A stretch of 64,000 nt of DNA from NCBI RefSeq assembly GCF_056746865.1, contig NZ_CM163382.1. One strand, given 5' to 3'. Every line of letters begins with the position of its first letter. Position 1 is the first letter of the stretch. A program made the translations under genes and the position numbers. A model generated the notes under the pieces. The model made no database searches, was not told the origin of the DNA, and was given only the letters and a program-made list of their open reading frames with translations. This document shows positions 9,691-26,626 of the stretch, in pieces.

Positions 9691-9960
9691 TCCGGAATGA
9701 CGAGGTTATCTTTGCGGAGATTAAGGCAATGGTATACGGGCCGACGTTCCATGCCGCGTTACTACATTCAGCCCGGACGTAAAATGCGCCCGTCAAAAAG
9801 AACGGTTCGCTTCGAAACTCAGCCAGGATACCACCTCTCCGCCACACCCGGGAAGAAGTTGATATGGTGGTTGCCGGACAACAGCGCTCCTGGATTGACT
9901 GCTGCATCACTCAACCACGCTGAATATCAAAGGAGAGCGTTACCGGTTAAAAGAGAAACG
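9683..9960 (+). pseudogene. IS21 istA remnant, 3' piece (frameshifted, truncated)
   Basis: Encodes NVRNDEVIFAEIKAM and, in a second frame, RYYIQPGRKMRPSKRTVRFETQPGY, matching IS21 IstA residues ~85-150. No intact ORF. Confidence 0.6.
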
Positions 9961-11466
9961 TAAAGCTGTGGTGATGACCCAAAACGCAACGCCTGTCAGT
10001 GAGGATGAAATGGTGAAAAGCGGACAGCATCAGTAACGGAAGTATCTTAGCGGGTACGAAAATGGCAGGATCGTGACATTGACAGAATATCTCCTGATCA
10101 TCCTGAATGACTGCAGTTGCTGTAGAAAAGTAAGCTGTCTCCACCCACGGCACCACTTAACAGGCATTCCGTAACTTCCCCCAGACTTACTATGACGCAT
10201 TATCGGTGCACTGAAAACGGGAGAGTGCGCTTAAAACCGCAGACCGCATGCGGGTGTTACTGCATGACAGTCTGGCCGTATTGTGAGATGTCGGCAGGAA
10301 CCGATGTCCGCGCAGGGGGGAACTTCCTGCAGTACCTGACGCTTCAAATGGTATTAACCGTAGGGTGTTGTTGGTTCCGGATCGCGGAAATGGGAGCACA
10401 GGTCTGCTACGGGGTGTACCTCTGACAGTATATCCGGCTCGCTCATCTGACAGCCTCTCTCCCGGAAAAGACCAAAAATGAGATCGTCTCCTCAACAGCA
10501 GAGAAGAGGTCTTGACAGACAGGCTATATTGCATACGATTTATGAAGAAAAAGACAGCAAATATGGAGGTTATAGCGGAGAATACCCTACGAAATTCCTA
10601 TGAAAAACGATTGAAAAAAATATCAAATTCGATTCGTTTTTATATGCTTTTTGGGAGCGTGGCGATGACGAACTGTTGCATGTGCAGAGGAGAATGCACC
10701 CGGAAGCACCAGAATCATCCAGAAAGGCAGAACGATTACGCATCAAACCAGGAGACAGCAATATCAAGGTAATATACTGATTTAAAATGAATTTACAGCA
10801 ATACGTGAAAACATTTTTTACTTAAAGGAGACAGATGCGCTGAAGAGAGTGCAAGTATTTTTATATAAAAATGAGAAGTTTACGGGATGTATATCCGGCA
10901 CACTATGACCGGAGAATATCAGTCAAGCTTAAAAAGACAATAAATACAGTGAGTTAAATACACAGAGAAAACGTAGTATCAGAGGGTACATCTTACAACA
11001 GAGACTGAATTTCCGGTTTTTCATAACCGGCGCATTCCGGAAAGTGCAGGCGGCCCGGAGGTTTTCTGACGCCACTACCTGGTAGATTGTTCTGTACATC
11101 ATGTACGGAGGTTTTTGTTTGCTTTTTTAAAATCTGCAAATGTGAGAAAAGCAGGTGAGGTGTATTGTGGGAAAGGAACTGGATGATATCTGCACCAGCT
11201 GTCCGTATATCGATGCTGTAAAACGGCACAAACAACAGCTCGGTGCCATAGAGGAATATACACAGTGGTTAAAAAAAGAACCACGGGCATCTTATTTTTT
11301 TCTGTTCCAGCTGTATACCCGCATTCACAATACATTTTTCTCCCAAAAGCAACAACTCCCGTTCACTCCCGGTGGCACTCACTGCCCGGAACCTGATGTC
11401 ACCCTTCGGGACTTAACGCTTTCCCCTGGCTACCACAGTGATTATGCCCCTCAACCCATTCCGGAG

Positions 11467-12318
11467 ATGGACAGTTCTGCTGTTGTTCCCCCAACTAATG
11501 AAAACACCTCGCCTCCGGAAGATACTCCCGACAACACTCCGGCCGGAGGCAATACCGGACAAGCGGAAAAGACCAGAAACGCAGGACTCACACCCATTCC
11601 TGAAAAACGTTCAGGAATGCCCCCGGAACATCTGCGGTTTGCCACGGGGTTTCCATCGCAACCGAAGATTGCCGGTCCCAGAGAAAAGCCGATGCGCACC
11701 GTGCATCCGGATAAAATCTACCGTGAAATTATATGGTTCTGCTCCAGTTACCTGCTGAAATCCGGACCAGAGGCTACGAGGACGATTATCAACTCAGTAT
11801 TCTCTGAATGGGCCAGCATAAACAATGATTACCCCTCCCCCTTTTCGTGGGTGGACAGCAGGGACAGTGAACAGTGTGACTGGTTATGGAACGCCATGCA
11901 GGTCCGGTGTGTGGGAACCCCGCTGAATCCCCTTACCCCGGAGCAGAAATACTGGTTTGCCTGCGCCACGTTTGATAACTGGGAGGGCTGGAATGAGCAA
12001 CAGGTACAGTTTTTACTGGAAAGTAATCCCAGACGGAACAGAGCGAAGTTTACGCAGGTCTCCTTCCAGGCCCCCAGGATTCAGCATAAAGCGATTCTTC
12101 TTGATGAGCTGAAAAGTGCCCGGGAGCAACAAAAAAGGCGTGATGAACGTGCTGATGGTTCCGTCCCTCTGAAACTGTCCGGAAAAATCCACAAACAGCT
12201 TGAAAGTATTGCCCGAAGTCGTGGTGTCCTCCCAAAAAAACTGCTGAATGAAATGATTGAGCAGGCGTACCATGATTTGGTGGCAACCAGGCAGAACAGC
12301 CAAATCGATTCCAGATAA
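11467..12318 (+). CDS. hypothetical protein (Pro/Thr-rich N-terminal region; C-terminal region with ribbon-helix-helix-like segment)
   Basis: ORF 11155..12318 with no ATG before 11467. GGAG precedes ATG 11467. No family recognised. Confidence 0.3.
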   Translation: MDSSAVVPPTNENTSPPEDTPDNTPAGGNTGQAEKTRNAGLTPIPEKRSGMPPEHLRFATGFPSQPKIAGPREKPMRTVHPDKIYREIIWFCSSYLLKSGPEATRTIINSVFSEWASINNDYPSPFSWVDSRDSEQCDWLWNAMQVRCVGTPLNPLTPEQKYWFACATFDNWEGWNEQQVQFLLESNPRRNRAKFTQVSFQAPRIQHKAILLDELKSAREQQKRRDERADGSVPLKLSGKIHKQLESIARSRGVLPKKLLNEMIEQAYHDLVATRQNSQIDSR

Positions 12319-12401: not shown

Positions 12402-12637
12402 ATGAATCCGTCTGATGCCATTGAGGCAATTGAAAAACCGCTCTCCTCCCTGCCTTACTCACTTTCCCGTCACATCCTGGAACATCTGCGCAAACTCACC
12501 AGTCACGAACCCGTGCCTGGCATTATGGGTAAAAGCGGGGCCGGTAAATCCTCACTCTGTAATGCGCTGTTTCAGGGGGAGGTCACCCCGGTCAGTGATG
12601 TTCACGCCGGCCCCCGGGAAGTGCAGCGCTTCCGTCT
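12402..12637 (+). pseudogene. YeeP/YfjP-like small GTPase gene, N-terminal part (interrupted by IS21-family element)
   Basis: P-loop GKSGAGKSS, then ...REVQRFRL at the insertion junction. Confidence 0.7.
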
Positions 12638-12839
12638 TGCAAAATGGCATCTGAATCGATCGCAGTTTGGCATTCGAATCGATCATGATTTGGCATCCAT
12701 CTCCGATCACAGTTTGGCATCACAATCGATCACGATTTGGCATGCTTCCGATCATTGATTGGCATCCTGCCAGTCACTCCGGGAATTAACTCTTTTCACC
12801 ACAGTCTCCATTGCCGTGTTTAAACCAGTGGAGACGTCA

Positions 12840-14405
12840 ATGTCCAGAAAGAGAAAATCCAGGAGCACTATGGAAACCTGTTTTAAGATTCTTCAGCTCA
12901 AGTTCGACAAGAAGCTGACTAACCGTTGTATCGGACTGACGTTACACATCAGCGCCTCAACCGTTTTTGAGGTTCTTGCCCGCTTCAAAGCCTCTTCTCT
13001 GTCATGGCCATTACCTGCTGATATATCCCATGACACGCTGGAGAAACTCATTTTTCCGCCCAAAGACACCTTTGCATCAGAGCTTGTAATGCCTGACATG
13101 TTGTACCTCGATACGGAAATGAGAAAACCAGGTGTGACGCGGCAACTGTTGTGGATGGAATACAAGGCACAGGCGGGTAACAAAGCGATGGGATACTCGC
13201 ACTTCTGCCGTTGCTACCGGGAGTGGAAAAAAACGCGACGTCTCTCCATGCGCCAGGAGCATCGTGCCGGCGAAAAGCTTTTTATCGACTTCTGTGGTCC
13301 TACGGTTCCTGTTATTAATCCGGACACCGGTGAGATACGCCGCGTGGCAATCTTCGTGGCCGTAATGGGGGCGTCCAACTATACCTACGTTGAAGCGTGC
13401 GAAGGTCAGGACATGATGTCATGGTTAAATGCCCACAGCCGTTGCCTGACCTTCCTGGGCGGCGTACCGAAGCTGCTCATCCCCGATAACCTCAGAAGCG
13501 CAGTGAAAAAGGCCGATCGATATGAGCCTGTCATCAACGACAGTTATCAGGCACTGGCTGAGCACTATGGCACGGTTATCATCCCGGCCCGACCACGCAA
13601 ACCTAAAGATAAACCAAAAGCAGAAAACGGCGTCCTCATCGTCGAACGATGGCTTCTTGCCCGCATCCGTAATGAAACCTTCCACACGCTCAGGGCGCTG
13701 AATGCGCGCCTTAGGGAGTTACTGACAGACATGAATAACCGGCCAATGAAGGGGTACGGCAATCAAACCCGTGCAGAACGCTTCCGCATACTGGATGCGC
13801 CAGCACTCTCTCCGCTGCCTCTGGCACCTTATGAATACACGGAATACAAAGCTGTGAAGGTTGGCCCTGACTACCACGTTGAATATGCCCGTCACTGGTA
13901 CTCCGTTCCACACGAACTGGTCGGTCAGCGTCTGTCACTGAAGGCGGGGCAGTCGGTGGTACAGCTCTGGCACAAGGGGCAGTGTGTGGCGCAACATCCG
14001 CGCAGCACACATGAATATAAACACACAACCAATCCGCTTCACATGCCAGAGCGCCACCGGCAGCACGGGACATGGACACCGGAACGCCTGATCGAGCAGG
14101 GAAAACGTACGGGCCCGTCCACAGGCCGGGTGGTTGAATCCATGCTGAAGGCAAAACCCCATCCGGAACTGGCTTATCGTGCAGTTCTGGGGCTGCTGGC
14201 ACTTCAGAAAAAATACGGCCCGGAACGGCTGGAAAAGGCCTGTTACGTTGCCCTGCACTATAACGCCCCTGACAGACGCTTTATCGACAATCTGCTGCGT
14301 CACCATCGGGAGAACCTGGAGCTTCCATTATCCCGCCAGGGCGAACAACATCCGGCATATGCTTCAGAGCATGAAAACCTGCGTGGTCCGGGCTACTACC
14401 ACTGA
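12840..14405 (+). CDS. istA: IS21-family transposase IstA
   Basis: Long ORF with GGAG ribosome-binding site before ATG 12840; lies between IS21-type ends, directly upstream of an IstB-like gene. Confidence 0.7.
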   Translation: MSRKRKSRSTMETCFKILQLKFDKKLTNRCIGLTLHISASTVFEVLARFKASSLSWPLPADISHDTLEKLIFPPKDTFASELVMPDMLYLDTEMRKPGVTRQLLWMEYKAQAGNKAMGYSHFCRCYREWKKTRRLSMRQEHRAGEKLFIDFCGPTVPVINPDTGEIRRVAIFVAVMGASNYTYVEACEGQDMMSWLNAHSRCLTFLGGVPKLLIPDNLRSAVKKADRYEPVINDSYQALAEHYGTVIIPARPRKPKDKPKAENGVLIVERWLLARIRNETFHTLRALNARLRELLTDMNNRPMKGYGNQTRAERFRILDAPALSPLPLAPYEYTEYKAVKVGPDYHVEYARHWYSVPHELVGQRLSLKAGQSVVQLWHKGQCVAQHPRSTHEYKHTTNPLHMPERHRQHGTWTPERLIEQGKRTGPSTGRVVESMLKAKPHPELAYRAVLGLLALQKKYGPERLEKACYVALHYNAPDRRFIDNLLRHHRENLELPLSRQGEQHPAYASEHENLRGPGYYH

Positions 14406-14421
14406 CAGAAGGAACAACAGT

Positions 14422-15177
14422 ATGAGTGATAACCTGTTAAACAAACTGACCCAACTGAAACTCCCGGCGATGGCCGGGAGCCTGATACGGCAGCGGGAAA
14501 CGCCTCAGACCTACGACGAACTGTCGTTCGAGGAAAGGCTGACGCTGCTGGTTGATGACGAGCTTCTGAGCAGGGAAAACAGCCGTGTGGCACGGTTGAG
14601 AAAAAATGCCGGCCTGAAATACCAGGCAACACCGGAAGGGCTGCGCTATCCGGCCTCAAGAGGTCTGCGGGCTGAACAGATGAGAGAACTGCTGAACGGC
14701 CACTACATAACCCACAGGAAAAACCTGCTGATAACCGGTCCGACAGGATGTGGCAAGAGCTGGATAGCCAATGCGCTGGGCGAACAGGCATGTCGACAGA
14801 AACACAGCGTCCGGTACTGTAGAACCGGGCGATTACTGGAACAACTGGCTCAGGGACGTGTTGATGGCAGCTGGCTGAAATATCTGAAACAGTTGCAAAA
14901 AATACAGGTTCTAATCCTGGACGATCTGGGGCTGGAACAGTTAAGTAACGCCCAGTGTAATGACCTTCTGGAGCTCATAGAGGATCGTTACGGACAAAGC
15001 AGCACGATAGTGGTAAGCCAGTTCCCGGTAGATAAATGGCATGGTCTGATGGAGAACCCAACAACAGCAGATGCCATCCTGGACAGACTGGTACATAACT
15101 CACACCGGGTGGTCCTTCAGGGAGAGTCACTGAGGAAAAATCCCCCGGTAGTGGAAAGCAGCGAAAAAACGCGTTAA
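14422..15177 (+). CDS. istB: IS21-family helper ATPase IstB
   Basis: Walker A LITGPTGCGKS and Walker B VLILDDLG motifs; ATG 14422 with AGGAA upstream. Confidence 0.85.
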   Translation: MSDNLLNKLTQLKLPAMAGSLIRQRETPQTYDELSFEERLTLLVDDELLSRENSRVARLRKNAGLKYQATPEGLRYPASRGLRAEQMRELLNGHYITHRKNLLITGPTGCGKSWIANALGEQACRQKHSVRYCRTGRLLEQLAQGRVDGSWLKYLKQLQKIQVLILDDLGLEQLSNAQCNDLLELIEDRYGQSSTIVVSQFPVDKWHGLMENPTTADAILDRLVHNSHRVVLQGESLRKNPPVVESSEKTR

Positions 15178-15276
15178 AAAGCGGTAGAAAAAGTTAAGTT
15201 CCCGGTTGATCGAATGGATGCGAATCGCTGATCGGACTTCGATGCCAATCCGTGATCGAATAGAGCGGAATACGCA

Positions 15277-15920
15277 TCCGTCTGAATGGCCATGGTCACA
15301 GCATGGTTATCACTGACCTGCCCGGGGTGGGCGAGAGCCGGGACAGGGATGCAGAGTATGAAGCCCTGTACCGTGACATTCTGCTCGAACTGGACCTGGT
15401 ACTGTGGCTGATTAAAGCCGATGACCGTGCCCTGTCTGTGGATGAGTATTTCTGGCGACACATCCTGCACCGGGGACATCAGCGGGTACTGTTTGTGGTG
15501 ATGCAGGCCGATAAAACGGAGCCCTGCCATGAATGGGATATGGCCGGTATTCAGCCTTCTCCCGCACAGGCACAGAACATTCGCGAAAAAACGGAGGCGG
15601 TATTCCGTCTGTTCCGGCCCGTACATCGGGTTGTTGCCGTATCGGCCCGCACCGGCTGGGAACTGGATACGCTGGTCAGTGCGCTCATGACAGCACTTCC
15701 CGACCATGCCGCCAGTCCCCTGATGACCCGCCTGCAGGACGAGCTGCGCACGGAGTCTGTCCGGTCTCAGGCCCGTGAACAGTTTACCGGTGCGGTGGAC
15801 CGGATATTTGACACGGCGGAGAGCGTCTGCATTGCCTCTGTTGCACGCACGGTTCTGCGCGCCGTCCGTGACTCGGTGGTCTCTGTTGCCCGCGCGGTAT
15901 GGAACTGGATTTTCTTCTGA
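15277..15920 (+). pseudogene. YeeP/YfjP-like small GTPase gene, C-terminal part
   Basis: Continues the split GTPase: G3 motif DLPGVGES, then LVLWLIKADDR and VLFVVMQADK. Confidence 0.7.
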
Positions 15921-16040
15921 ACCCGGTGGTGATGTACCAGGCTGTTGTTACAGATTTTTAACTCCATGAAAACACTATGCAAACGCAGCCATACCCGGGT
16001 TGTCCCCTTGCGTTGTGTTTCTCAAGTTAATAGAATACAT

Positions 16041-16077
16041 CGATCGTTACTATCATATCGATCGTTATAAACGATCG
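16041..16077 (+). promoter_or_regulatory. cluster of three GATC (Dam) sites embedded in repeated CGATCGTT motifs, 60 bp upstream of the dynamin-like gene
   Basis: GATC at 16060-16063 and 16073-16076, with a third at about 16042; each inside a cgatcg palindrome (catcgatcgttact...atcgatcgttataaacgatcgttt). Confidence 0.5.
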
Positions 16078-16137
16078 TTTGTAGTAAATGACCTCCTCCG
16101 TGGTTGTCATGAAAATGCGTCTTAGGAAGGTTAAATA

Positions 16138-18534
16138 ATGCACGAAAAGAACATCGCCCTGCTTTGTGATGAAGCCGACCGACTTTTGCAACTGAACATT
16201 AATCTGCTCCGGCAAATGGTTGAGGAGCCAGATGTGTTATCTGACAGTAAGAACGAAAACAGACTGCTTTTTGATAAACAGAAAGCACTGAAAAGAATTG
16301 AGGAGCTGGAGGGCGAACAAATCAAAACCGCCCGCAGGGAGATGGTGCTGGCTGTTGTCGGCACGATGAAAGCAGGCAAATCAACCACCATCAACGCCAT
16401 TGTGGGGCAGGAAATTCTGCCTAACCGTAACCGCCCCATGACCTCTGTACCGACGCTCATCCGCCACGTTCCCGGAAAAACTGAGCCGGTTCTCCATCTG
16501 GAACATATTCAGCCTGTCCGCAATTTATTAATCACACTGCAGGAAAAACTCGCCACCCCGGCAGGACAGCAGGTCGCACAGACCCTGCAGCAAACCGGGG
16601 ATACCCGCGAACTGCTGGATATTCTGACGGATGATGGCTGGCTCAAAAATGAATACCACGGGGAGGAGGAAATCTTTACCGGACTGGCATCGTTAAACGA
16701 TCTGGTTCGTCTTGCTGCGGCAATGGGGACTGAATTTCCTTTTGATGAATACGCAGAAGTGCAGAAACTGCCGGTGATCGACGTGGAATTCAGCCATCTG
16801 GTGGGGATGGATGCATGCCAGGGAACACTCACACTGCTGGATACCCCCGGCCCTAATGAGGCCGGACAACCGCAGATGGAAGTGATGATGCGGGATCAAC
16901 TGCAGAAAGCCTCTGCGGTTCTGGCTGTGATGGATTACACCCAGATGAACTCAAAAGCGGATGAAGACGTCCGTAAAGAGCTTAATGCCATTGCTGACGT
17001 ATCAGCCGGCCGCCTGTTTGTACTGGTCAATAAATTTGATGAGAAAGACCGCAATGGCGATGGGGCAGATGCCGTACGCCAGAAAGTTCCGGCAATGCTG
17101 AACAGCGATGTGCTGCCCGCCTCCCGCGTTTATCCCGGATCCTCACGCCAGGCATACCTGGCTAACCGTGCGCTTCATGAGTTACGGAAAAACGGAACCC
17201 TTCCTGTTGATGAAGCCTGGGTCGATGATTTTATCAGAGGTGCCTTCGGTTGCATGAAAAAAGAATACGTCTGTAAAGACAGTGAACTGGCAACTGAAGG
17301 GGCGACAGACCTGTGGGAAGGCTCACTTATCGATCAACTGATAACGGAAGTCATACAGAGCTCACATTCCAGAGCTGCGGCACTGGCGGTTGACTCTGCC
17401 GCCGCAAAACTGATGCAGAATGCAGAAAATATCAGTGAATACCTGTTGTTACGCCATCAGGGGCTACAGCAAAGCATTCAGTCACTGCAGTCGCATATCA
17501 CCAGCCTGCTTGCGGATATCCGGGAAATCGCGGACTGTCAGGAGCAGATGACCACTGATGTCAGAATGGCCATGGAGGAGATCGATACTAAAACCCGGGA
17601 ATTACTGACGGGGGTCTGCACCTCACTGGAAGAGGAGCTGAATGACTATTTCAGAAGCGGTAAACGCAAAGAACAGCAAATGCTGGAGGAAGAAGACGCA
17701 GAACAACGAAGGTCTCAGTCCGGATTATGGGGGAAAATTTCTCAATGGTCCGGTATCAACAACCAGGGCCGGGAGGATTACAGGAAACGAGATTTTGCCC
17801 CGGACAGCCCCGAAATAAAATTCAGTGATCGCAGGGAAGCCCTTGAACTGATGACGCAAATCGAATCGACCGTGACCAGCCTGCACCGTGAGGCTGAAGC
17901 ACAGTTCCGGCCTGAGCTGGAGAAAATCGTCAGCGGGATTGAAACAGGTTTTCGTGGCACGGCCCTGTACGCCACAGAAAACATTGCCGGTCGCATCAAT
18001 GCCCGCCTGGAGGATGAGGGCTTTACCGTAAAAATCAGTTTTCCGGCAGTCAGCCAGTTACAGACCCGGCTCGCGGTAAAAATAAATCTGAGTGCGCTTA
18101 TGGAGGAAAGAACGGAGACCGTCACCCGTCGCCGTCGGCAGAGTGGCGTATGGGGAACCGTTTGTCGATGGTTTGGCACCAGTGACCTGGGCTGGGAAAA
18201 CTATGACGAGGATGTGAGTCGCAGCGTGATCAATATCAACAAGGTCAGAGAGGAAGTTATGTCACTGACCCGGGCATATTTCGGGGAGCTGCAGGCATCC
18301 ATTGAGCAGGATATTAACCAGCCCGTCCGCCAGGAAATCGATGCCTTTTTCTGCGCATTCAGGGAGAAAGTTGAACAACTGCGTAACACGCTGATTCAGA
18401 GCTCTGAAGATCATAAACGCGATCAGCAGGCGCAGGAACGGCTTACCGGGCGACTTCAGGCATTAAATGAAAGGGTTCCTGAGCTCATTACTGACAGTAA
18501 GGCGCTGAGGGAAGAGCTGGAGACAATGCTGTGA
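16138..18534 (+). CDS. dynamin-like GTPase, CrfC/YjdA-like (798 aa)
   Basis: G1 P-loop GTMKAGKST, G2 Thr in MTSVPT, G3 DTPG, G4 NKFD, in dynamin order, followed by a long helical region. N-terminal block MVLAVVGTMKAGKSTTINAIVGQEILPNRNRPMT closely matches recalled E. coli CrfC. AGGAAGG ribosome-binding site. Confidence 0.85.
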   Translation: MHEKNIALLCDEADRLLQLNINLLRQMVEEPDVLSDSKNENRLLFDKQKALKRIEELEGEQIKTARREMVLAVVGTMKAGKSTTINAIVGQEILPNRNRPMTSVPTLIRHVPGKTEPVLHLEHIQPVRNLLITLQEKLATPAGQQVAQTLQQTGDTRELLDILTDDGWLKNEYHGEEEIFTGLASLNDLVRLAAAMGTEFPFDEYAEVQKLPVIDVEFSHLVGMDACQGTLTLLDTPGPNEAGQPQMEVMMRDQLQKASAVLAVMDYTQMNSKADEDVRKELNAIADVSAGRLFVLVNKFDEKDRNGDGADAVRQKVPAMLNSDVLPASRVYPGSSRQAYLANRALHELRKNGTLPVDEAWVDDFIRGAFGCMKKEYVCKDSELATEGATDLWEGSLIDQLITEVIQSSHSRAAALAVDSAAAKLMQNAENISEYLLLRHQGLQQSIQSLQSHITSLLADIREIADCQEQMTTDVRMAMEEIDTKTRELLTGVCTSLEEELNDYFRSGKRKEQQMLEEEDAEQRRSQSGLWGKISQWSGINNQGREDYRKRDFAPDSPEIKFSDRREALELMTQIESTVTSLHREAEAQFRPELEKIVSGIETGFRGTALYATENIAGRINARLEDEGFTVKISFPAVSQLQTRLAVKINLSALMEERTETVTRRRRQSGVWGTVCRWFGTSDLGWENYDEDVSRSVININKVREEVMSLTRAYFGELQASIEQDINQPVRQEIDAFFCAFREKVEQLRNTLIQSSEDHKRDQQAQERLTGRLQALNERVPELITDSKALREELETML

Positions 18535-19436
18535 CTTCACCATTTATTCAACAAATTGCTGATAACCGGGTATGTCAGGTACTCACCTGTCTTCCTGAAA
18601 AATTTGTGGTTGATTTCGCAAACGGAATCGATGTTGCACAGGAGCATATCCGCACGGCCGGAGAGCGCACGTTCTTCCGGCGTTTAAAAGAGGGGCTGAC
18701 CGGCGAAGGCGCTGCACGGCAGAATGCCATCAATGCGTCGCTTGCACAGGGCGTTGAGGCGTCCCTGCGCTGGCTGACGGAGATGACAACGTCACTTGCC
18801 ACCACAAACTACGCGATTACCCGGGTAAACGACAGGGTCAGTTCACTGGTCAGTGATACAGCCAGGCTGGCGCATTATTCCGCAGATACGCGGGAGCAGT
18901 TACTCACCCTGGCCGATCAGGTTCACCATAAACTGAATCATCTTGAAGAAAAACTCCACCGTGTTGACCAGGTTCAGCGGGCGCAGTTACATCTTGAGCA
19001 GATATTCTCATGGTGGAGCGCCGGGCGATATGCGTCATTTTCCCCTGCCGGACGTTGTTATGTGGCACTTGAAGAGCTTCGCTGGGGCGCGTTTGGTGAT
19101 GTGATACGTCAGAGCGAAACAGGCCAGGTTAACCAGCTACTGGATATTCTCAGACATAAAGCATTAACGCAGATGGCACAGGAGAGTGGCGGTAGTGCAA
19201 CCGTGCGTCTGAACACTCTGGACTGGCTTGGTGGTCAGGGCCGGGAGCAGGCAGATAACGAGTGGCATGACGCGATTAACTGGCTGGGAGACTGGTGCAG
19301 TGAAGAGCAGCATCCGGTGATCTGGTCAACCACGCAGGCTGCAGAACACTTACCGGTTCGCATGCCTCGCCTCTGCTCTGCAGAACGCCTCTCTGAAAGT
19401 ATGGTCGATGAAATATTTCAGAAGGGGGCTGCATGA
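18531..19436 (+). CDS. YjcZ-like partner protein of the dynamin-like GTPase (301 aa)
   Basis: GTG start overlaps the upstream stop (ctGTGA); GGAG 10 bp upstream. Size and position mirror the crfC-yjcZ pair; family assignment not verified. Confidence 0.55.
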   Translation: MTSPFIQQIADNRVCQVLTCLPEKFVVDFANGIDVAQEHIRTAGERTFFRRLKEGLTGEGAARQNAINASLAQGVEASLRWLTEMTTSLATTNYAITRVNDRVSSLVSDTARLAHYSADTREQLLTLADQVHHKLNHLEEKLHRVDQVQRAQLHLEQIFSWWSAGRYASFSPAGRCYVALEELRWGAFGDVIRQSETGQVNQLLDILRHKALTQMAQESGGSATVRLNTLDWLGGQGREQADNEWHDAINWLGDWCSEEQHPVIWSTTQAAEHLPVRMPRLCSAERLSESMVDEIFQKGAA

Positions 19437-20503
19437 GTACAGAAATGAAAACGGGGCTGGTGCTGTCCGGTGGCGGGGCGGTGGGCGCTTATCAGGCGGG
19501 AGTGGTTAAGGCACTGGCAGAGTGTGGTACACAGATCAGCATGGTTTCAGGGGCCAGCATTGGCGCATTCAATGGTGCCATTATCGCGGCCTCTCCCGAT
19601 CTGTCAGAAGCTGCCGTACGCCTGGAGGCGCTCTGGGATCATCTGGGGAATAATCAGGTGCTGTCGGTAAACAGATTGGTTTACTTTTCATTGCTGAAAA
19701 AATTGTTCCAGGCAATGAACCTCTGCCAGATCCCCGGACGTGCAGGAGCACTGCTTACGACGCTTCTTCGCCATATATCGACAATCAACGGGTTTGACAA
19801 TCTGATGGCTCAGCCGTTGTTGTCAGATGAGCCCCTGACAGCGCTGATGGATCATTATCTTGATACTGATGCTCTGGCAGACGGGCTACCGCTGTATGTG
19901 TCGCTGTACCCCACAGAAGGGGGCATGCAGGATATTATTGACTGCATTCGTGCTGAACTGGGTGTCGGAACCACGAAAAACGCCGTTTTTCAGCATATCC
20001 AGAGCCTGCCCCGCGGACAGCAGAAAGAGGCTCTGCTTGCGTCAGCCGCGCTGCCCCTGCTGTTCCGTCCCCGTGAGGTTCAGGGGACAATGTTCGGTGA
20101 TGGTGGTATGGGAGGATGGCGAAATATGCAGGGAAATACCCCTGTGACGCCTCTGGTCGATGCCGGATGCAATATGGTGATTGTGACGCATCTGAGTGAG
20201 GGTTCTTTATGGGATCGCCAGGCTTTTCCGGACACCACAATCCTTGAGATCCGTCCCCGGAAAAGGCTGAAATATGCAGGTGATGGTGGCAACAGCGGCG
20301 GTCTGCTCAGTTTTACATCGGCACATACCGACGCCTGGCGTCAGCAGGGCTATGAAGACACGATGCTGGCGATGGAGCATATCCGGAAACCGCTGGCAGC
20401 ACGTCAGGCACTGACCCGGTCAGAGGCGGTATTGCAGAAAAGCCTGGATATAACGGAAGAGGCAGATTTGGCACTGAGAAACGCGATGGCCCGGATTAAA
20501 TAA
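19433..20503 (+). CDS. patatin-like phospholipase (356 aa)
   Basis: Oxyanion motif LSGGGAVGAYQAG, nucleophile elbow G-A-S-I-G (Ser42, nt 19556-19558), catalytic Asp in FGDGG (Asp223, nt 20099-20101). ATG overlaps the upstream stop (gcATGA). Confidence 0.85.
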   Translation: MSTEMKTGLVLSGGGAVGAYQAGVVKALAECGTQISMVSGASIGAFNGAIIAASPDLSEAAVRLEALWDHLGNNQVLSVNRLVYFSLLKKLFQAMNLCQIPGRAGALLTTLLRHISTINGFDNLMAQPLLSDEPLTALMDHYLDTDALADGLPLYVSLYPTEGGMQDIIDCIRAELGVGTTKNAVFQHIQSLPRGQQKEALLASAALPLLFRPREVQGTMFGDGGMGGWRNMQGNTPVTPLVDAGCNMVIVTHLSEGSLWDRQAFPDTTILEIRPRKRLKYAGDGGNSGGLLSFTSAHTDAWRQQGYEDTMLAMEHIRKPLAARQALTRSEAVLQKSLDITEEADLALRNAMARIK

Positions 20504-20836
20504 AGACGCCCCAAAGAAACGCCACCGCCTGTGGTGGTGTTTTTCCTGTCTGGTGTTATTGAAAATATTTTCATATATATATTACCTGAGAGAAAGTTTT
20601 ACCCCTCACCTGTCAATTCACTCACTGGAAATTTAATTATGAAATTACCTGTAAAGTTATTAATGAGCCTTATATCTCTGGTCAGCGTTATTGCACGTGC
20701 CGGGGAATATAAAAATTACAGCCGGGATGAAATAAAATACTGGCGATATACATCATACAAGGGGGGGAAACTTCCGGAAGGTTTCACTGATGAGAAATTT
20801 TCCAGCGCCATTTACAACGGAAGAATATTTACAATG

Positions 20837-21322
20837 AAACGTTTACATACCCTTATGTTATTTCTGGCGGTTCTGTTCACGGGCTTTAACTTTAACGCAG
20901 AAGCGGCTACCGTAAAACAAGCTCTTAGTTGTAACCCGGAAGCCTGGGCTGAACAACCTGGAGCGTGTCCATCAACGTACGAGTTGTACGAAGGTGACGC
21001 TACCTACAAAGCCGCTATCGACAAAGCATTAAAACCGGTCGGACTGAGCGGCATGTTCGGTAAAGGCGGCTATATGGATGGCCCTGGTGGAGGTATCACG
21101 CCAGTAAACATTAACGGTACAGTCTGGTTCCAGGGCGACGGTTGCAAAGCCAATACCTGCGGCTGGGACTTTATCGTAACACTCTATAACCCAAAAACCC
21201 ATGAAGTTGTTGGCTACCGTTACTTTGGTTTAGATGACCCGGCCTACCTGGTTTGGTTCGGTGAAATTGGCGTGCATGAATTCGCGTATCTGGTGAAAAA
21301 CTACGTAGCTGCGGTTAACTAA
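20837..21322 (+). CDS. secreted Ivy-family-like protein (loop CKANTC in place of Ivy CKPHDC)
   Basis: Signal peptide MKRLHTLMLFLAVLFTGFNFNAEA. Mature protein resembles E. coli Ivy in KAA...KGG and CKxxxCG blocks. ORF extends upstream to 20531/20639 with a second signal-like segment, so start is uncertain. AT-rich DNA. Confidence 0.45.
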   Translation, partial: KRLHTLMLFLAVLFTGFNFNAEAATVKQALSCNPEAWAEQPGACPSTYELYEGDATYKAAIDKALKPVGLSGMFGKGGYMDGPGGGITPVNINGTVWFQGDGCKANTCGWDFIVTLYNPKTHEVVGYRYFGLDDPAYLVWFGEIGVHEFAYLVKNYVAAVN

Positions 21323-21337
21323 TTTAAGGAGTCTATC

Positions 21338-21748
21338 ATGAAAACTTTTATCAAAACTTTACTCGTTGCTGTAACTATTCTGTTCTCTGTCTTCGCTACT
21401 GCGAAACAAGTAAAACTGCCAAATAACATCAAATACGTTAATACTACAGAAGCGTTTTCCTGTACCGAAATTGACGGTATGAATTGCCAGACAAAGAATC
21501 AGTTCAACTATAAAGATAACAGCTATGTTTTCGTGCTTGAACGTGGTGGTGCCTGGTGCTACGACTACACTGTCTCGGTAGTTAACCTGAAAACCGGGAA
21601 AGCACAAATGATTGAATACGGGGACAATCAACTGTGCTCAGGTAGCAACAAACCGTTCTTCGAAATCAAAAATGGCGTACCGACGGTAGGAGTCATCGAC
21701 ACATCCGGAAAACCTGTCGTTGTAGCCCAGGACAAACTTAAAATCTAA
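21338..21748 (+). CDS. small secreted Cys-containing protein, unknown function
   Basis: Signal peptide MKTFIKTLLVAVTILFSVFATA; GGAG before the ATG; 15 bp after the previous gene. Confidence 0.5.
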   Translation: MKTFIKTLLVAVTILFSVFATAKQVKLPNNIKYVNTTEAFSCTEIDGMNCQTKNQFNYKDNSYVFVLERGGAWCYDYTVSVVNLKTGKAQMIEYGDNQLCSGSNKPFFEIKNGVPTVGVIDTSGKPVVVAQDKLKI

Positions 21749-21891
21749 GGAGTAAACCATGCGTTTCTCTGCACATTATTAATATCAAAGGTAAATACAG
21801 CCCCAGCCATTGTTACCGGAAAGCCGCTTAATGCGTGGCTCGCCAGTGAAAGGCCTCTCAGACAATAAACCTTATTCATTTCACCCGTCAG

Positions 21892-21925
21892 GCCGCGTCT
21901 TCTCCGGGAGACGCGGCTTTTTTCA
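21892..21925 (+). terminator. rho-independent terminator after the secreted-protein genes
   Basis: gccgcgtct...agacgcggc stem followed by tttttt. Confidence 0.6.
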
Positions 21926-21968
21926 TTTATTGCACCAGTAAATCTTAACCACCGATAAGGAGCAAAGT

Positions 21969-22790
21969 ATGCGATTAGCAAGTCGTTTTGGTTATGCTGC
22001 AAACCAGATACGCCGTGACCGTCCGCTGACACATGAAGAACTGATACGCCATGTACCCAGTATTTTTGGGGAAGACCGGCACACCTCCCGCAGTGAACGG
22101 TATGCGTACATTCCCACCATTACCGTCCTGGAAAATCTGCAGCGGGAAGGCTTTCAGCCGTTCTTCGCCTGCCAGACCCGTGTGCGCGACCCGGGCCGCC
22201 GGGGATACACAAAACACATGCTGCGTCTGCGGCGGGCCGGAGAGATAAACGGAGAACATGTCCCTGAAATTATTCTGCTCAACTCTCATGACGGTACCTC
22301 CAGCTACCAGATGCTGCCGGGTTACTTCAGGTTCGTCTGCCAGAACGGGTGCGTCTGTGGCCAGTCTCTGGGGGAAGTGCGTGTTCCACACCGGGGAAAT
22401 GTAGTGGAGAAAGTTATCGAAGGGGCTTACGAGGTGGTGGGCGTGTTTGACCGGATAGAGGAGAAGCGTGATGCCATGCAGTCGCTGGTCCTGCCGCCAC
22501 CGGCACGCCAGGCGCTGGCACAGGCGGCACTGACTTACCGTTATGGTGACGAACATCAGCCCGTCACCACCGCCGACATTCTGACGCCGCGACGCCGGGA
22601 GGATTACGGTAAGGACCTGTGGAGCGCATATCAGACCATCCAGGAGAATATGCTGAAAGGCGGGATTTCCGGTCGCAGTGCAAAAGGAAAACGTATCCAT
22701 ACCCGGGCCATTCACAGCATTGATACCGACATTAAGCTCAATCGCGCATTGTGGGTGATGGCAGAAACGATGCTGGAGAGCCTGCGCTGA
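21969..22790 (+). CDS. DUF932-family protein (YfjQ/YafZ-like)
   Basis: 273-aa ORF in the conserved CP4-type order before the antirestriction gene; AAGGAG ribosome-binding site. Confidence 0.65.
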   Translation: MRLASRFGYAANQIRRDRPLTHEELIRHVPSIFGEDRHTSRSERYAYIPTITVLENLQREGFQPFFACQTRVRDPGRRGYTKHMLRLRRAGEINGEHVPEIILLNSHDGTSSYQMLPGYFRFVCQNGCVCGQSLGEVRVPHRGNVVEKVIEGAYEVVGVFDRIEEKRDAMQSLVLPPPARQALAQAALTYRYGDEHQPVTTADILTPRRREDYGKDLWSAYQTIQENMLKGGISGRSAKGKRIHTRAIHSIDTDIKLNRALWVMAETMLESLR

Positions 22791-22871
22791 TGCCGTTTCC
22801 CTGAGTGAGGGAATCATTCAGCTTTCGTTCCTGAAAAACACACATTTATTTGTTATTTAAGGAGTTATCTC

Positions 22872-23351
22872 ATGAAAACCGTTTCTCAGAATACCCCCAC
22901 AATTTATTCAGCTACAACACCAGAGAATAATCCGCCTCAGTTGGTTGCCAGCCTCGTCCCTGATGAACAGCGCATCAGCTTCTGGCCGCAGCATTTTGGC
23001 CTCATTCCACAGTGGGTGACCCTGGAGCCCCGTGTCTTCGGCTGGATGGACCGTCTGTGCGAAGACTACTGCGGTGGTATCTGGAATCTGTACACCCTGA
23101 ACAACGGCGGGGCATTTATGGCACCCGAACCGGATGACGATGATGACGAAACATGGGTACTGTTCAATGCCATGAACGGTAACCGCGCAGAAATGAGCCC
23201 GGAAGCCGCCGGTATTGCCGCCTGTCTGATGACGTACAGTCATCATGCCTGTCGTACGGAGAATTATGCCATGACGGTCCATTATTACCGGTTGCGGGAT
23301 TACGCCCTGCAGCATCCGGAATGCAGCGCCATTATGCGCATCATCGACTGA
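22872..23351 (+). CDS. antirestriction protein, KlcA/ArdB family (YfjX/YeeS-region paralog)
   Basis: 159-aa ORF with acidic stretch PEPDDDDDETW, typical of this family and position. Confidence 0.7.
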   Translation: MKTVSQNTPTIYSATTPENNPPQLVASLVPDEQRISFWPQHFGLIPQWVTLEPRVFGWMDRLCEDYCGGIWNLYTLNNGGAFMAPEPDDDDDETWVLFNAMNGNRAEMSPEAAGIAACLMTYSHHACRTENYAMTVHYYRLRDYALQHPECSAIMRIID

Positions 23352-23843
23352 ATGGAGAGAAGCACAATGCAACAACTTTCCTTTCTGCCCGGAGAGATGA
23401 CGCCCGGCGAGCGCAGCCTCATTCAACGGGCCCTGAAAACCCTGGACCGCCATCTTCATGAACCCGGCGTGGCCTTCACCTCCACCCGTGCAGCACGGGA
23501 ATGGCTGATTCTGAACATGGCGGGACTGGAGCGTGAAGAATTCCGGGTGCTGTATCTGAACAACCAGAATCAGCTGATTGCCGGTGAAACCCTCTTCACC
23601 GGCACCATCAACCGCACGGAAGTCCATCCCCGTGAAGTGATTAAACGCGCCCTGTATCACAATGCCGCTGCTGTGGTGCTGGCACACAATCACCCGTCCG
23701 GTGAAGTCACACCCAGCAAGGCAGACCGCCTTATCACGGAACGTCTGGTACAGGCACTGGGCCTGGTGGATATCCGGGTGCCGGACCATCTGATAGTCGG
23801 TGGCAGCCAGGTTTTCTCCTTTGCCGAACATGGTCTGCTTTAA
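23352..23843 (+). CDS. RadC-like JAB/MPN domain protein
   Basis: JAMM motif HNHPSG and upstream E (REVIKRALYHNAAAVVLAHNHPSGEVTPS). Confidence 0.8.
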   Translation: MERSTMQQLSFLPGEMTPGERSLIQRALKTLDRHLHEPGVAFTSTRAAREWLILNMAGLEREEFRVLYLNNQNQLIAGETLFTGTINRTEVHPREVIKRALYHNAAAVVLAHNHPSGEVTPSKADRLITERLVQALGLVDIRVPDHLIVGGSQVFSFAEHGLL

Positions 23844-23905
23844 CCCGTCACAACCACATCACACCTGTTTTCACTTTTATCTTCTGTCTTCAGAGGTATC
23901 CCACT

Positions 23906-24127
23906 ATGAAAATCATCACCCGTGGCGAAGCCATGCGTATTCACCGTCAGCATCCGGCATCCCGTCTTTTTCCGTTCTGTACCGGTAAATACCGCTGGCA
24001 CGGCAGTGCTGAAGCGTATACCGGTCGTGAAGTGCAGGATATTCCCGGTGTGCTGGCCGTGTTTGCTGAACGCCGTAAGGACAGTTTTGGCCCGTATGTC
24101 CGGCTGATGAGCGTCACTCTGAACTGA
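23906..24127 (+). CDS. yeeT: YeeT-family protein (DUF987)
   Basis: MKIITRGEAMRIHRQHPASRLFPFCTGKYRWHGSAEAYTGREVQDIPGVLAVFAERRKDSFGPYVRLMSVTLN. Confidence 0.8.
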   Translation: MKIITRGEAMRIHRQHPASRLFPFCTGKYRWHGSAEAYTGREVQDIPGVLAVFAERRKDSFGPYVRLMSVTLN

Positions 24128-24206
24128 GTCAGTAAGGGCATTCTGATGAGCAGAATTATCGCCATTACCGGACCGTTCTTAACCGATTTTCTGTAAGGAT
24201 TTTATC

Positions 24207-24575
24207 GTGTCAGACACACTCCCCGGGACAACACTTCCCGACGACAATCACGACCGCCCCTGGTGGGGGCTGCCCTGCACCGTGACGCCCTGTTTCGGGG
24301 CACGTCTGGTGCAGGAGGGTAACCGGTTGCATTACCTTGCCGACCGCGCCGGTATCAGAGGCCTGTTCAGCGATGCAGATGCGTACCACCTGGACCAGGC
24401 CTTTCCGCTGCTGATGAAACAACTGGAACTCATGCTCACCAGCGGTGAACTGAATCCCCGCCATCAGCATACCGTCACGCTGTATGCAAAAGGGCTGACC
24501 TGCAAAGCCGATACCCTCAGCAGTTGTGGTTACGTTTATCTGGCTGTTTATCCGACGCCCGAAATGAAAAATTAA
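24207..24575 (+). CDS. cbeA: CbeA/YeeU-family antitoxin (type IV toxin-antitoxin, cytoskeleton-bundling)
   Basis: 122-aa ORF matching the YeeU family in its conserved position upstream of cbtA. Confidence 0.8.
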   Translation: MSDTLPGTTLPDDNHDRPWWGLPCTVTPCFGARLVQEGNRLHYLADRAGIRGLFSDADAYHLDQAFPLLMKQLELMLTSGELNPRHQHTVTLYAKGLTCKADTLSSCGYVYLAVYPTPEMKN

Positions 24576-24663
24576 CTCTCCAGAATAGCCTTCTGCTACG
24601 GCCTGGTGTTTTCACCACGCCACTTTTCCATTTTTATATCTGCATATCAGGAAAATCTTCAGT

Positions 24664-25037
24664 ATGAAAACATTACCTGTATTACCCGGGCAGGCGGCCA
24701 GTTCTCGCCCGTCTCCTGTTGAAATCTGGCAGATACTGCTGTCCCGACTGCTGGACCAGCACTATGGCCTCACACTGAATGACACACCTTTTGCCGATGA
24801 ACGTGTGATTGAGCAGCATATTGAGGCAGGCATTTCACTGTGTGATGCGGTGAACTTTCTCGTGGAAAAATACGCGCTGGTGCTACCGACCAGCCGGGAT
24901 TCAGCGCCTGTACCCGCTCTCAGTTAATAAACAGCATCGATATCCTCCGGGCTCGCAGGGCGACCGGCCTGATGACCCGCGACAATTACAGAACGGTAAA
25001 TAACATTACCCTGGGTAAGTATCCGGAGGCGAAATGA
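24664..25037 (+). pseudogene. cbtA: CbtA/YeeV-family toxin gene with a 1-bp deletion (frameshift)
   Basis: N-terminal 80 aa match CbtA, then the frame breaks near 24883 (gtgctaccgac where gtgcgtaccgac is expected). The canonical C-terminus INSIDILRARRATGLMTRDNYRTVNNITLGKYPEAK is present in the +1 frame, ending at 25037. Confidence 0.7.
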
Positions 25038-25228
25038 TGACACTGGAAGCCGACAGCGTTAACGTACAGGCGCTGGATATGGGGCACATTGTCGTTGACA
25101 TTGATGGTGTTAATATCACTGAACTGATTAATAAGGCCGCTGAAAACGGTTATTCACTCCGCGTGGTGGATGACCGTGACTCTACCGAAACACCGGCAAC
25201 TTATGCCAGCCCTCACCAGTTGCTGTAA
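25034..25228 (+). CDS. yeeW: YeeW-family protein
   Basis: 64-aa ORF MMTLEADSVNVQALDMGHIVVDIDGVNITELINKAAENGYSLRVVDDRD. Confidence 0.7.
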   Translation: MMTLEADSVNVQALDMGHIVVDIDGVNITELINKAAENGYSLRVVDDRDSTETPATYASPHQLL

Positions 25229-25384
25229 GACAATGCAGTGATGCAGGGTATAGTGCCATTAACCACAGAAACAGCACTGTTGTCCTGTATTAAGCAGGCA
25301 AGAGAAGATGTCCTTACCCTGCGCCATCTGCAGCTTCTGCACCAGAACCGGTGAATCTCACTCAACAGGCTTCATTTCCCCTGA

Positions 25385-25415
25385 CGCCAGCCTGAATACA
25401 GCTGGCGTTTTCATT
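25385..25415 (+). terminator. rho-independent terminator downstream of yeeW
   Basis: cgccagc / gctggcg stem followed by ttttcattt. Confidence 0.55.
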
Positions 25416-25612
25416 TATAAACAGAAAGGAAAACCGATAATAATGGAATGGACGCCCCGACCATGAAGCAACGGTAGGATATTACTGATAAACCTTCCAG
25501 TGGAGGTGCGTTATGGCCGTTTTAACGATTAGCATTGACCTGACAAAAAATGAATTCCAAATCCACGGTCTGGGTAGGAACAGAAAAATCTAAGCTCAGA
25601 AAACGGATTAAA

Positions 25613-25785
25613 GTAAGCGTCAACGGAGCACCGTATTGACGCTTATTTATTGGTGAGAACTACGTTCCATGGCAGGAGTTCGTCAACACGGTTGGAGGGC
25701 CATTCCGGCAGTATGCTCAGAATATGGCGCAGATACGCTTCCGGATCGATACCGTTCAGACGGCAGGTGCCTGCTTTTCCGGCAA
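25613..25785 (-). mobile_element. IS66-family remnant: terminal repeat plus last ~40 codons of a TnpC (yoeD-like)
   Basis: GTAAGCGTCAACGG terminus at 25613. Minus-strand translation of 25653-25780 gives ...GIDPEAYLRHILSILPEWPSNRVDELLPWNVVLTNK, an IS66 TnpC C-terminus distinct from the 7245-9682 copy. Confidence 0.6.
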
Positions 25786-25799
25786 CAAGCAGGAATCTC

Positions 25800-26025
25800 A
25801 GCGCTGAAGCAGGAATTAGAGGTAAAAACGCCCTACCGGGCCATGAATCACCCGGTCATTGGAGTAGTAACCAAAGCAGATTTAGCCAGCATGGAACAAA
25901 TATCTTTGGTGAAAAGTTGGTTACGGGAAGCTGGAGCGCACAACGTGTTAGTAACCAGTGCAGTTAATAACAATGGAGTTACAGAACTTTTTGCCTTGCT
26001 GCATACAGAAGAAGGCTGTTGTTAA
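25800..26025 (+). pseudogene. EutP/PduV-like GTPase fragment (yoeF-like)
   Basis: C-terminal-like segment NHPVIGVVTKADLASMEQISLVKSWLREAGAHNVLVTSAVNNNG with no credible N-terminus. Confidence 0.35.
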
Positions 26026-26125
26026 TTTCGATTGGTTCTCAGATGAGAATGATGACGGTGATACACAGATAAGAATCAATGAGCAATGAGGGTTACCGGG
26101 CAACCCTCATTGAATAAAACGGGAA

Positions 26126-26455
26126 TTACTTCGCTTCGCCGTTTTTCATTTCGCCCATAGCTTTCAGCTTTTTGGAGATATCGCGGCGTTCTTTGGAGAG
26201 CTCGGCATTTTTGATGATGTAATCGTCAACGCGATCTTCATAGTCACCTTTCATGCTGGCGATGATGCCCTGGATTGCTTCAACGCTCATCCCTGGCTTG
26301 ATGTAATCGCTCAGGTTGTCCAGCAACAGGACGCGCTTCTGGTTGTCACGGATCTTTTTCTCAACGTCCTGAATTTCACGTTGCAGTTTGTTCTTACGAC
26401 GGAACAGACGAACAAATTCCAGTACGTCCTGGAATGAAGGCTTGGTAGTTTCCAT
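26126..26455 (-). CDS. yeeX: DUF496 protein YeeX
   Basis: [41 protein letters not shown]...; start codon placed at 26453-26455. Confidence 0.9.
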
Positions 26456-26626
26456 TTTTATACCCCTGATAATGTGAGAGTCGGATTCGTTTAAGCAACC
26501 GCTATTCGTTAGGGCCAACATTACTCATAGCTGCCGCAGATGACAATGCTTTTATCCCTTTTCACTATCATACCCTTTATCCTTGCTGAATCGAAGCAGC
26601 AGCAAGATGATTCTGAAGTTCAGGAA

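Follow-up and report, generated by a model that had tools for sequence, protein, structure and literature searches.

A 'flu module' and a 'yee module' have been described for genomic islands of the GI-pheV type (PMC11537424, PMC6480617); in Escherichia coli K-12 MG1655, the CP4-44 island has the order yoeA' (with IS2), yeeP', isrC, flu, yeeR, yeeS, yeeT, cbeA, cbtA, yeeW, yoeD', yoeF and tmaR, and thus contains flu, the gene for antigen 43 (Ag43), directly after the leader isrC. In the regulatory region of agn43, the OxyR site responsible for Dam/OxyR phase variation is overlapped by three GATC sites (PMC13337833). A second set of described relatives is found in the core genome, where RdcA/RdcB (CrfC/YjdA-YjcZ), a dynamin-like GTPase and partner system, activates the diguanylate cyclase DgcE (PMC6510439); island dynamin and YjcZ proteins are approximately 30% identical to this pair (PMC12922286). 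In a comparison of an MP1 lysogen with its cured derivative, a five-gene dynamin/RdcB/phospholipase cluster was the strongest up-regulated unit by RNA sequencing (PMC12922286). The stretch of 64,000 nucleotides from contig NZ_CM163382.1 (RefSeq assembly GCF_056746865.1) that is analyzed here, hereafter the window, contains such a dynamin operon within an island at the CP4-44 locus, between cobU and tmaR (yeeX). The window island is a decayed, integrase-less member of the CP4-44/CP4-57-type 'yee module' family, as is its K-12 counterpart, and it is a frequent allele of this known mosaic island family. Recombination-driven exchange of alleles between paralogous islands at the cobU-tmaR locus is the likely origin of the present arrangement, with the window holding a dynamin-type allele that has retained an agn43-type switch. 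The flu and yee modules and the dynamin operon itself have been described previously (PMC11537424, PMC12922286); the agn43-type switch retained upstream of the dynamin operon is new. The variable part of the island and its immediate borders comprise the following features:

12402 to 12637 and 15277 to 15920, plus strand: YeeP/YfjP-family GTPase gene, split by an insertion sequence (IS) of the IS21 family
12638 to 15276, plus strand: IS21-family element (istA/istB), 2,639 bp, with a 7-bp target duplication, TCCGTCT
16008 to 16076, plus strand: agn43/cah-type promoter and putative Dam/OxyR switch directly upstream of the dynamin gene, with -35 TTGCGT, a 17-nt spacer, -10 TAGAAT at 16031 to 16036, GATC at 16042, 16060 and 16073, and an OxyR-like sequence at 16039 to 16075
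16138 to 18534, plus strand: dynamin-like GTPase of 798 amino acids (aa), predicted paralogue of CrfC/YjdA/RdcA
18531 to 19436, plus strand: YjcZ/RdcB-family protein (PF13990, 4.7e-70, residues 26 to 296; PGAP name 'RdcB family')
19433 to 20503, plus strand: patatin-like phospholipase with GGGAVG oxyanion motif, GASIG nucleophile motif and catalytic DGG
20639 to 21322 (probable true start 20834), plus strand: secreted protein 1, 162 aa from 20834, with Sec signal peptide
21338 to 21748, plus strand: secreted protein 2, 136 aa, with signal peptide, all-beta, orphan
21816 to 21968, plus strand: resumption of the scaffold, with a DUF905 3' remnant and a strong terminator-like hairpin (21890 to 21919)

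A sequence-only reading of the window had listed the gene order between 12402 and 25228, had stated that flu follows yeeP in K-12, and had noted that no autotransporter gene was present. The listing of open reading frames (ORFs) and the annotation of near-identical genomes bear out the gene order, and the MG1655 record gives the stated order for K-12. The absence of an autotransporter also holds for the window: blastn found no match to K-12 flu-yeeR, and no ORF reaches 550 aa except the 798-aa dynamin gene, compared to the 1,039 aa of Ag43. Aligned by blastn with a K-12 derivative, the window yields two segments only, the yeeP' remnant at 15368-15923 (96.2% identity) and yeeS through the backbone at 23391-35405 (98.6%); the breakpoints relative to K-12 are therefore found at 15923, 3 nt past the GTPase stop codon, and at 23391, the yeeS 5' end. 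Complete flu modules show the order GTPase, agn43, full-length yeeR, irmA, DUF905, DUF932, antirestriction gene and YeeS; relative to these, the breakpoints are 15923 and 21816, the latter within the 3' end of DUF905. The K-12 island corresponds to a complete flu-type island that has lost 3.3-3.4 kb, from the middle of yeeR into the first 24 nt of yeeS, in agreement with the yeeR-to-yeeS deletion reported previously (PMC6480617); relative to the type found in strain VTB96959v (L007), the loss amounts to 3.36 kb. Because this deletion is specific to K-12, the right breakpoint against K-12 lies at 23391 and not at 21950. Of the homology breakpoints proposed from the sequence alone, 15921 and 21950, the left one was accurate within 3 nt; the right one was approximately 135 nt off for complete flu islands and wrong for K-12.

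The window island and CP4-44 share the same locus, approximately 99.7% identity from cbeA to yoeF, 96% identity in the GTPase, the architecture of the switch, the lack of an integrase, and a decayed state. They differ in the central block, which consists of the dynamin, YjcZ and patatin genes and two secreted-protein genes in the window, and of the flu leader, flu and yeeR in K-12; further, the window retains the DUF932 and antirestriction genes that are deleted in K-12, and the dynamin type is the commoner of the two.

Evidence for exchange comes from strain VTB96959v, which contains flu-yeeR-irmA-DUF905 at the yeeX locus, where the window holds the dynamin operon. This comparison extends into the arms of the island, for which the left-arm annotation was transferred from strains KMi025 (L001) and 50EVA (L008):

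1 to 4536: island left arm, with gamma-glutamyltransferase fragment, ISL3 pseudogene, two zinc-ribbon genes and an inovirus-Gp2-family gene
4537 to 12303: left part of the exchanged central block, with hha remnant, helix-turn-helix (HTH) regulator, hypothetical gene, IS66 remnants, AAA-ATPase fragment and a 387-aa orphan ORF
4537 to 4690: remnant of an hha/ymoA paralogue, 75% identity, no intact ORF
21969 to 25228, plus strand: right-arm scaffold genes DUF932, ArdB/KlcA antirestriction, YeeS (RadC/JAB), YeeT (DUF987), CbeA, CbtA and YeeW
21969 to 22790, plus strand: DUF932 gene
24664 to 25038, plus strand: cbtA, frameshifted by a 1-nt deletion at 24883
25229 to 26455: right island junction and backbone, with truncated DUF957, yoeD/yoeF remnants and tmaR, approximately 99.7% identical to K-12

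Positions 1-4536 are 99.4% identical between the window and VTB96959v; identity falls to 75-89% at 4537-6310, and 6311-12303 has no counterpart. The GTPase gene is approximately 96% identical, 15924-21815 is replaced, and the sequence from 21816 to ~22565 is 4-12% diverged; from ~22566 onward, the two genomes are almost identical, including the frameshift in cbtA. The left end of VTB96959v is also 99.7% identical to that of 50EVA, a strain that is 100% identical to the window except for the IS21 element and that contains a complete island of ~30 kb between cobU and tmaR. The flu-type central block has a close relative elsewhere: at ~10.9-23.4 kb of the VTB96959v locus, only 0-5 differences per 500 nt separate it from an island located near cadC in L006, an unrelated strain. 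The mosaic agn43 gene is the exception, and many proteins of the two blocks have identical WP accessions. The same arms, the different central blocks and the donor-like flu block together point to recombination between paralogous islands, by double crossover or by gene conversion. The divergent stretch runs from ~4537 to ~22500, and the comparison shows an exchanged block of ~13–18 kb, with crossovers near 4536 and near 22500, inside DUF932; both lie in conserved arm genes. The substrates for such ectopic recombination are present, since genomes contain the scaffold at a median of 4-5 places and assemblies labelled Nissle or EcN show both flu-type and dynamin-type islands. The idea of modular exchange of cargo within a conserved island scaffold, as proposed by the sequence-only reading, therefore stands in its core, because VTB96959v combines the same arms with flu; the neat swap of a cassette between 15921 and 21950 does not, since the crossovers fall in the arms.

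Relative to K-12, one G is absent from cbtA, so that the ORF stops at 24927 and encodes 87 aa rather than 124, next to an intact antitoxin gene cbeA; the identical frameshift is annotated in both 50EVA and VTB96959v, and it must therefore predate the cargo difference between these strains. The exchanged block begins on its left with the hha paralogue, of which flu-type blocks have an intact copy and the window only a remnant. Additional hha copies (hha2/hha3) have been associated with yeeR/irmA (PMC6480617), and the position of hha inside the exchanged block accounts for this association.

The islands of this family have two conserved arms, on the left from the zinc-ribbon/Gp2 genes to the YeeP GTPase and on the right DUF932-antirestriction-RadC-YeeT-CbeA/CbtA-YeeW, which flank one slot of the size of a transcription unit. 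The slot opens just after the agn43-type promoter with its three GATC sites and closes at the terminator before DUF932; its contents range from nothing to agn43-DUF905, agn43-yeeR-irmA-DUF905, cah-dynamin-YjcZ-patatin, or dynamin-YjcZ-patatin followed by two secreted proteins. With several paralogous islands per genome, alleles could be exchanged by homologous recombination with crossovers in the conserved arms, and a site-specific cassette mechanism would not be needed. The flu gene of K-12 would be a later import, followed by loss of a segment that begins in the 3' part of yeeR and reaches the 5' end of yeeS. Viewed as one promoter-to-terminator unit, the slot provides a simple rule for reading these islands.

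Several islands illustrate its combinatorial content. In the serX island of E110019, the order is GTPase, cah, dynamin, YjcZ, patatin and DUF932; the composite cah-dynamin-YjcZ-patatin was covered to at least 80% in 609 genomes, and in O157:H7 genomes at 99.9% identity. Another state, GTPase-agn43-DUF905-DUF932, is without yeeR or irmA, and in CP4-57 of K-12 the slot is empty, with DUF932 following directly after the GTPase. At a tRNA-Met(CAT) site in E. albertii, GTPase, dynamin, YjcZ and patatin genes are followed by ~330 nt of unassigned sequence (L013, 12858-13191) and a nearly complete DUF905. Since cah and the dynamin operon occur side by side, the dynamin operon alternates with yeeR-irmA rather than with the autotransporter. 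The refuting observation named by the sequence-only reading, flu-carrying islands that also contain this operon, is thereby made in part, as the 609 genomes carry an Ag43-family autotransporter (cah) and the dynamin operon in the same slot. The cah islands of enterohemorrhagic and enteropathogenic E. coli, represented by that of E110019, resemble the window in the dynamin-YjcZ-patatin genes (95% identity), in the 164 nt that follow the GTPase stop codon, switch included, and in the scaffold. In contrast to the window, their switch is separated from the dynamin gene by Cah with its leader, and the secreted-protein genes are absent; the E110019 island is also located at a tRNA-Ser gene and has a complete right arm. 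Relative to the cah type, the window is without 3.16 kb (cah leader and gene) and gains 48 nt (16086-16133) and 1.2 kb (20589-21815, with both secreted-protein genes).

These comparisons bear on the best surviving alternative to allele exchange, differential loss from an ancestor that had both an autotransporter and the dynamin operon, with the window losing cah and K-12 losing the dynamin operon. In its favor, the 609 genomes have a composite slot; sequence common to the window and the cah type extends for 164 nt, after which exactly the 3.16-kb cah leader and gene are missing from the window; and K-12 has demonstrably undergone a deletion. Yet no island was seen with both yeeR-irmA and the dynamin operon, the window holds 48 nt and 1.2 kb that are absent from the cah type, and the flu block is a near-exact match to a paralogous island. 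Further, between the window and the flu type at yeeX, divergence is 4-11% in the HTH regulator, the GTPase and the 5' part of DUF932, compared to at least 99.4% identity in the arms, a pattern that deletion cannot yield. Differential loss thus appears unlikely as an account of the flu and dynamin types; the difference between the window type and the cah type may still stem from a loss or gain of cah.

Less probable again, and to be given only a slim chance, is the independent insertion of two different islands at the same site in different lineages, without exchange in situ. The island family is horizontally mobile and is found at many loci, including serX, the vicinity of cadC, tRNA-Met(CAT) in E. 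albertii, and aspV (PMC12922286). However, the arms of the two types at yeeX are 99.4-99.7% identical, compared to 89-95% between islands at different loci, and the divergence changes abruptly inside homologous genes. Both types also share the same decay, from the gamma-glutamyltransferase fragment and ISL3 pseudogene to the truncated DUF957, the yoeD/yoeF remnants and the 1-nt frameshift in cbtA, and neither has an integrase or a tRNA attachment (att) site. Finally, a dedicated, integron- or shufflon-like system for site-specific cassette exchange at fixed GTPase and DUF905/DUF932 boundaries, suggested by the recurrence of breakpoints across island types (at 15923 or 16085 on the left side, at 21816 on the right), is hardly credible, since no direct or inverted repeats were found at the cargo boundaries, no recombinase is present at the locus, crossovers at the same locus lie kilobases from these boundaries in arm genes, and the recurring positions are promoter and terminator edges, as expected of old module junctions inherited by descent.

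When the window is aligned with the islands of E. albertii, of the cah type and of K-12 flu, the intergenic regions between GTPase and cargo are 31-50% identical or unalignable, except for a single 57-column block of 72-74% identity; this block contains TAATAGAAT followed by the three GATC sites, and in K-12 it is the regulatory region of agn43. The -35 box, the 17-nt spacer and the -10 box are all conserved in the window. The arrangement TAGAAT-N6-GATC-N14/15-GATC-N9-GATC was found exactly once in each island examined, always between the GTPase and the cargo, with KMi025 as the sole exception; in this strain (L001, ~13430, equivalent to 16073-16076 of the window) the third GATC is changed to GATA, and the dynamin gene is also interrupted by an IS. 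The K-12 isrC/flu transcript is annotated to begin with the G in the first of the GATC sites, 6 nt downstream of TAGAAT; in the window, the dynamin start codon is located 96 nt past the predicted transcription start. The sequence at 16039-16075 matches the OxyR consensus ATAG-N7-CTAT-N7-ATAG-N7-CTAT at 13/16 positions, the best match on both strands of the 64 kb, and the K-12 site scores 11/16 on the same consensus. The window thus shares with the agn43 switch the -10 TAGAAT, three GATC sites in an OxyR-like dyad, and the position relative to the GTPase gene; the agn43 switch precedes an autotransporter gene with the isrC leader, and its counterpart in the window a cytoplasmic/membrane dynamin-phospholipase operon with a predicted 96-nt leader. 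The true left edge of the cargo is accordingly placed at ~16085, downstream of the switch, and not at the GTPase stop codon; the swapped unit begins immediately past the switch and stops shortly ahead of the scaffold hairpin at 21890-21919.

The retained architecture suggests that the dynamin unit may be phase-variable. A broader reading is more tentative and falls somewhat short of an even chance: the Dam/OxyR switch would serve as a generic expression socket, the five-gene envelope module under its control would be bistable and heritable, and its 'induction' in MP1 would reflect a phase state rather than a response to the prophage. In the MP1 experiment, the cluster was up-regulated whichever of the two media was used, and its up-regulation did not follow the lytic/lysogenic decision (PMC12922286); the result fits a fixed, heritable ON/OFF difference between two clonal lines. 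If the switch is active, a widespread membrane-remodeling operon would be phase-variable, which would bear on the interpretation of transcriptomes and on tests of a suspected role in phage or envelope defense. As a caveat, several points weigh against an active switch. The MP1 result has other possible causes, and the switch could be an inert relic, left over from a cah gene that has been lost. The spacing between the first and second GATC is 18 nt in the window, compared to 19 nt in flu and cah islands; conservation of the switch between E. coli and E. albertii does not prove constraint, as it is too recent (~95% overall identity). The hairpin after the patatin gene (20523-20539, terminator-like) may uncouple the secreted-protein genes from the promoter. 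A literature search found no link between the dynamin operon and phase variation.

Prevalence places the two types in perspective. Within a collection of 5,426 complete E. coli genomes, a query from the dynamin gene to yeeA was covered to at least 80% in one place in 2,049 (~38%), and a query from flu to yeeA was covered to the same extent in 717. A first count of 897 genomes for the dynamin type was too low, since its query had included the strain-specific IS21 element and variable sequence on the left; it is superseded by the count of 2,049. The dynamin type was seen at tmaR/yeeA in Nissle, in strains labelled ST131, and in O55:H7 and O157:H7 strains. It is a common, recombination-driven island polymorphism and no rarity; K-12, the reference for this locus, represents a minority state at CP4-44 that is also scarred by deletions, and among natural E. 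coli with an island at this site, the majority contain the uncharacterized dynamin/phospholipase module instead. The dynamin type is somewhat favored as the older resident at the yeeX locus, with flu imported in some lineages, K-12's included. The direction of replacement implied by the sequence-only reading, in which the dynamin operon had taken the place of flu, is likely to be the reverse. Two considerations temper this polarity: the counts hinge on the 80% coverage threshold and on a redundant collection rich in laboratory strains (of four evenly spaced flu-to-yeeA entries with at least 80% coverage, two were laboratory K-12 derivatives), and the direction is inferred from prevalence and from the near-identity of the flu block to its paralogue. 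When species-representative genomes were scanned with the dynamin protein, only E. albertii was found, a result that says little about the wider distribution.

The first two cargo genes resemble the RdcA/RdcB pair in order and in overlap: a dynamin-like GTPase gene is followed by a YjcZ-family gene whose start overlaps the dynamin stop codon. Unlike RdcA/RdcB, the island pair is linked in an operon to a patatin gene, is island-borne, and lies behind an agn43-type switch; a link to DgcE is not known. The dynamin-like GTPase, which contains the P-loop GTMKAGKST, aligned over its full length with the NCBIfam model for CrfC (NF007368) at 556 bits, compared to an equivalog cut-off of 1146; judged by this score, the island dynamin is a paralogue and not an equivalog of CrfC. 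With its complete set of motifs, the patatin protein looks catalytically competent.

The annotated ORF of secreted protein 1 comprises 227 aa and contains two signal-peptide-like segments; its homologs, found only in E. coli and Shigella, mostly have 160 aa and begin at the second methionine, and the start at 20834 is therefore the probable one. Eight structures of Ivy, the inhibitor of vertebrate lysozyme, were the top eight Foldseek matches in the Protein Data Bank (PDB) to an AlphaFold2 (AF2) model of this protein; with a modest mean confidence (pLDDT) of 63 for the model, these matches had probabilities of 0.75-1.0, E values of 0.015-0.5 and TM-scores of 0.4-0.5. The family keeps a C-K-x-x-x-C-G loop that resembles the disulfide-bonded CKPHDC loop of Ivy, whose histidine is not kept, and Pfam gave no Ivy match. 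As a lead derived from this model, secreted protein 1 may be a periplasmic inhibitor of peptidoglycan hydrolases. Secreted protein 2 had no Pfam match, and its fold search was uninformative; sequence searches of the PDB with both secreted proteins found no match. Searches of Pfam, NCBIfam and PADLOC assigned no family to the secreted proteins, and otherwise recognized only dynamin/CrfC-like, YjcZ and patatin families in the cargo.

An envelope-protection or defense role of the cargo is plausible but speculative. PADLOC recognized no defense system among the window proteins; its LeoBC match was at the level of the P-loop only (8.6e-5, residues 29-89), and its patatin matches were N-terminal only (1e-4). 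The cyclase gene of a cyclic oligonucleotide-based antiphage signaling system (CBASS) with a CapV patatin effector is absent, and the cargo does not correspond to the LeoA-LeoBC models of Eleos/Dynamins. A literature search found no tested defense function for the dynamin operon.

Insertion sequences have repeatedly affected the GTPase and dynamin genes of this island family. In the window, excision of the IS21 element together with one copy of its target duplication restores an intact GTPase ORF of 290 aa with its stop at 15920; this gene is ~96% identical to yeeP' of K-12 and to intact GTPase genes of 873 bp. The same element, at 99.9% identity, is located within the dynamin gene of KMi025 (L001, 15020-17658). 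Insertions of IS21/ISEc12 or IS66, or 5' deletions, affect the dynamin gene in many genomes, including strains labelled ST131 and O157:H7; the recurrence of these lesions in the compared sequences suggests repeated inactivation of the operon.

The scaffold gene set of the window is complete and in order (GTPase, DUF932, antirestriction, RadC/JAB, DUF987, CbeA-CbtA, YeeW), with 89-99% nucleotide identity to K-12 CP4-44 and complete islands. The site corresponds to the cobU–yeeX (CP4-44) locus and contains neither a P4-type integrase nor a tRNA att site; no tRNA genes were found within the 64-kb window. K-12 CP4-44 is likewise without integrase and tRNA att site, and in 50EVA the interval from cobU to tmaR contains neither an integrase nor flu. 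Beyond tmaR, the backbone continues with yeeA, sbmC, dacD and sbcB. The remaining features of the arms and the central block are as follows:

7286 to 9599: IS66 remnants
11155 to 12318: 387-aa orphan ORF just upstream of the GTPase gene
22872 to 23351, plus strand: ArdB/KlcA-type antirestriction gene
23352 to 23843, plus strand: YeeS (RadC/JAB) gene
ending at 25228, plus strand: YeeW gene
26126 to 26455, minus strand: tmaR (yeeX)

The 387-aa ORF at 11155-12318 had no match in Pfam, NCBIfam or PADLOC; it is also present in the dynamin-type islands of Nissle, 50EVA and KMi025, and a YfjI-family gene takes its place in flu-type blocks. In B2-type strains (Nissle, L004, 13820-19137; L009), an intact cluster of a TonB-dependent receptor and an ABC transporter is located between this ORF on one side and the GTPase gene on the other; the GTPase gene of these strains is internally deleted, and the same switch and dynamin operon follow downstream. 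The candidate interpretation of K-12 yoeA, a TonB-receptor fragment, as a relic of the Nissle TonB/ABC cluster was dropped, as the two share no nucleotide homology. Outside of the island, the his operon is followed at ~49000-60000 by a long stretch of very low G+C (30-40%), in the position expected for the O-antigen gene cluster; in 50EVA, the mannosyltransferase gene wbdC directly follows hisIE.

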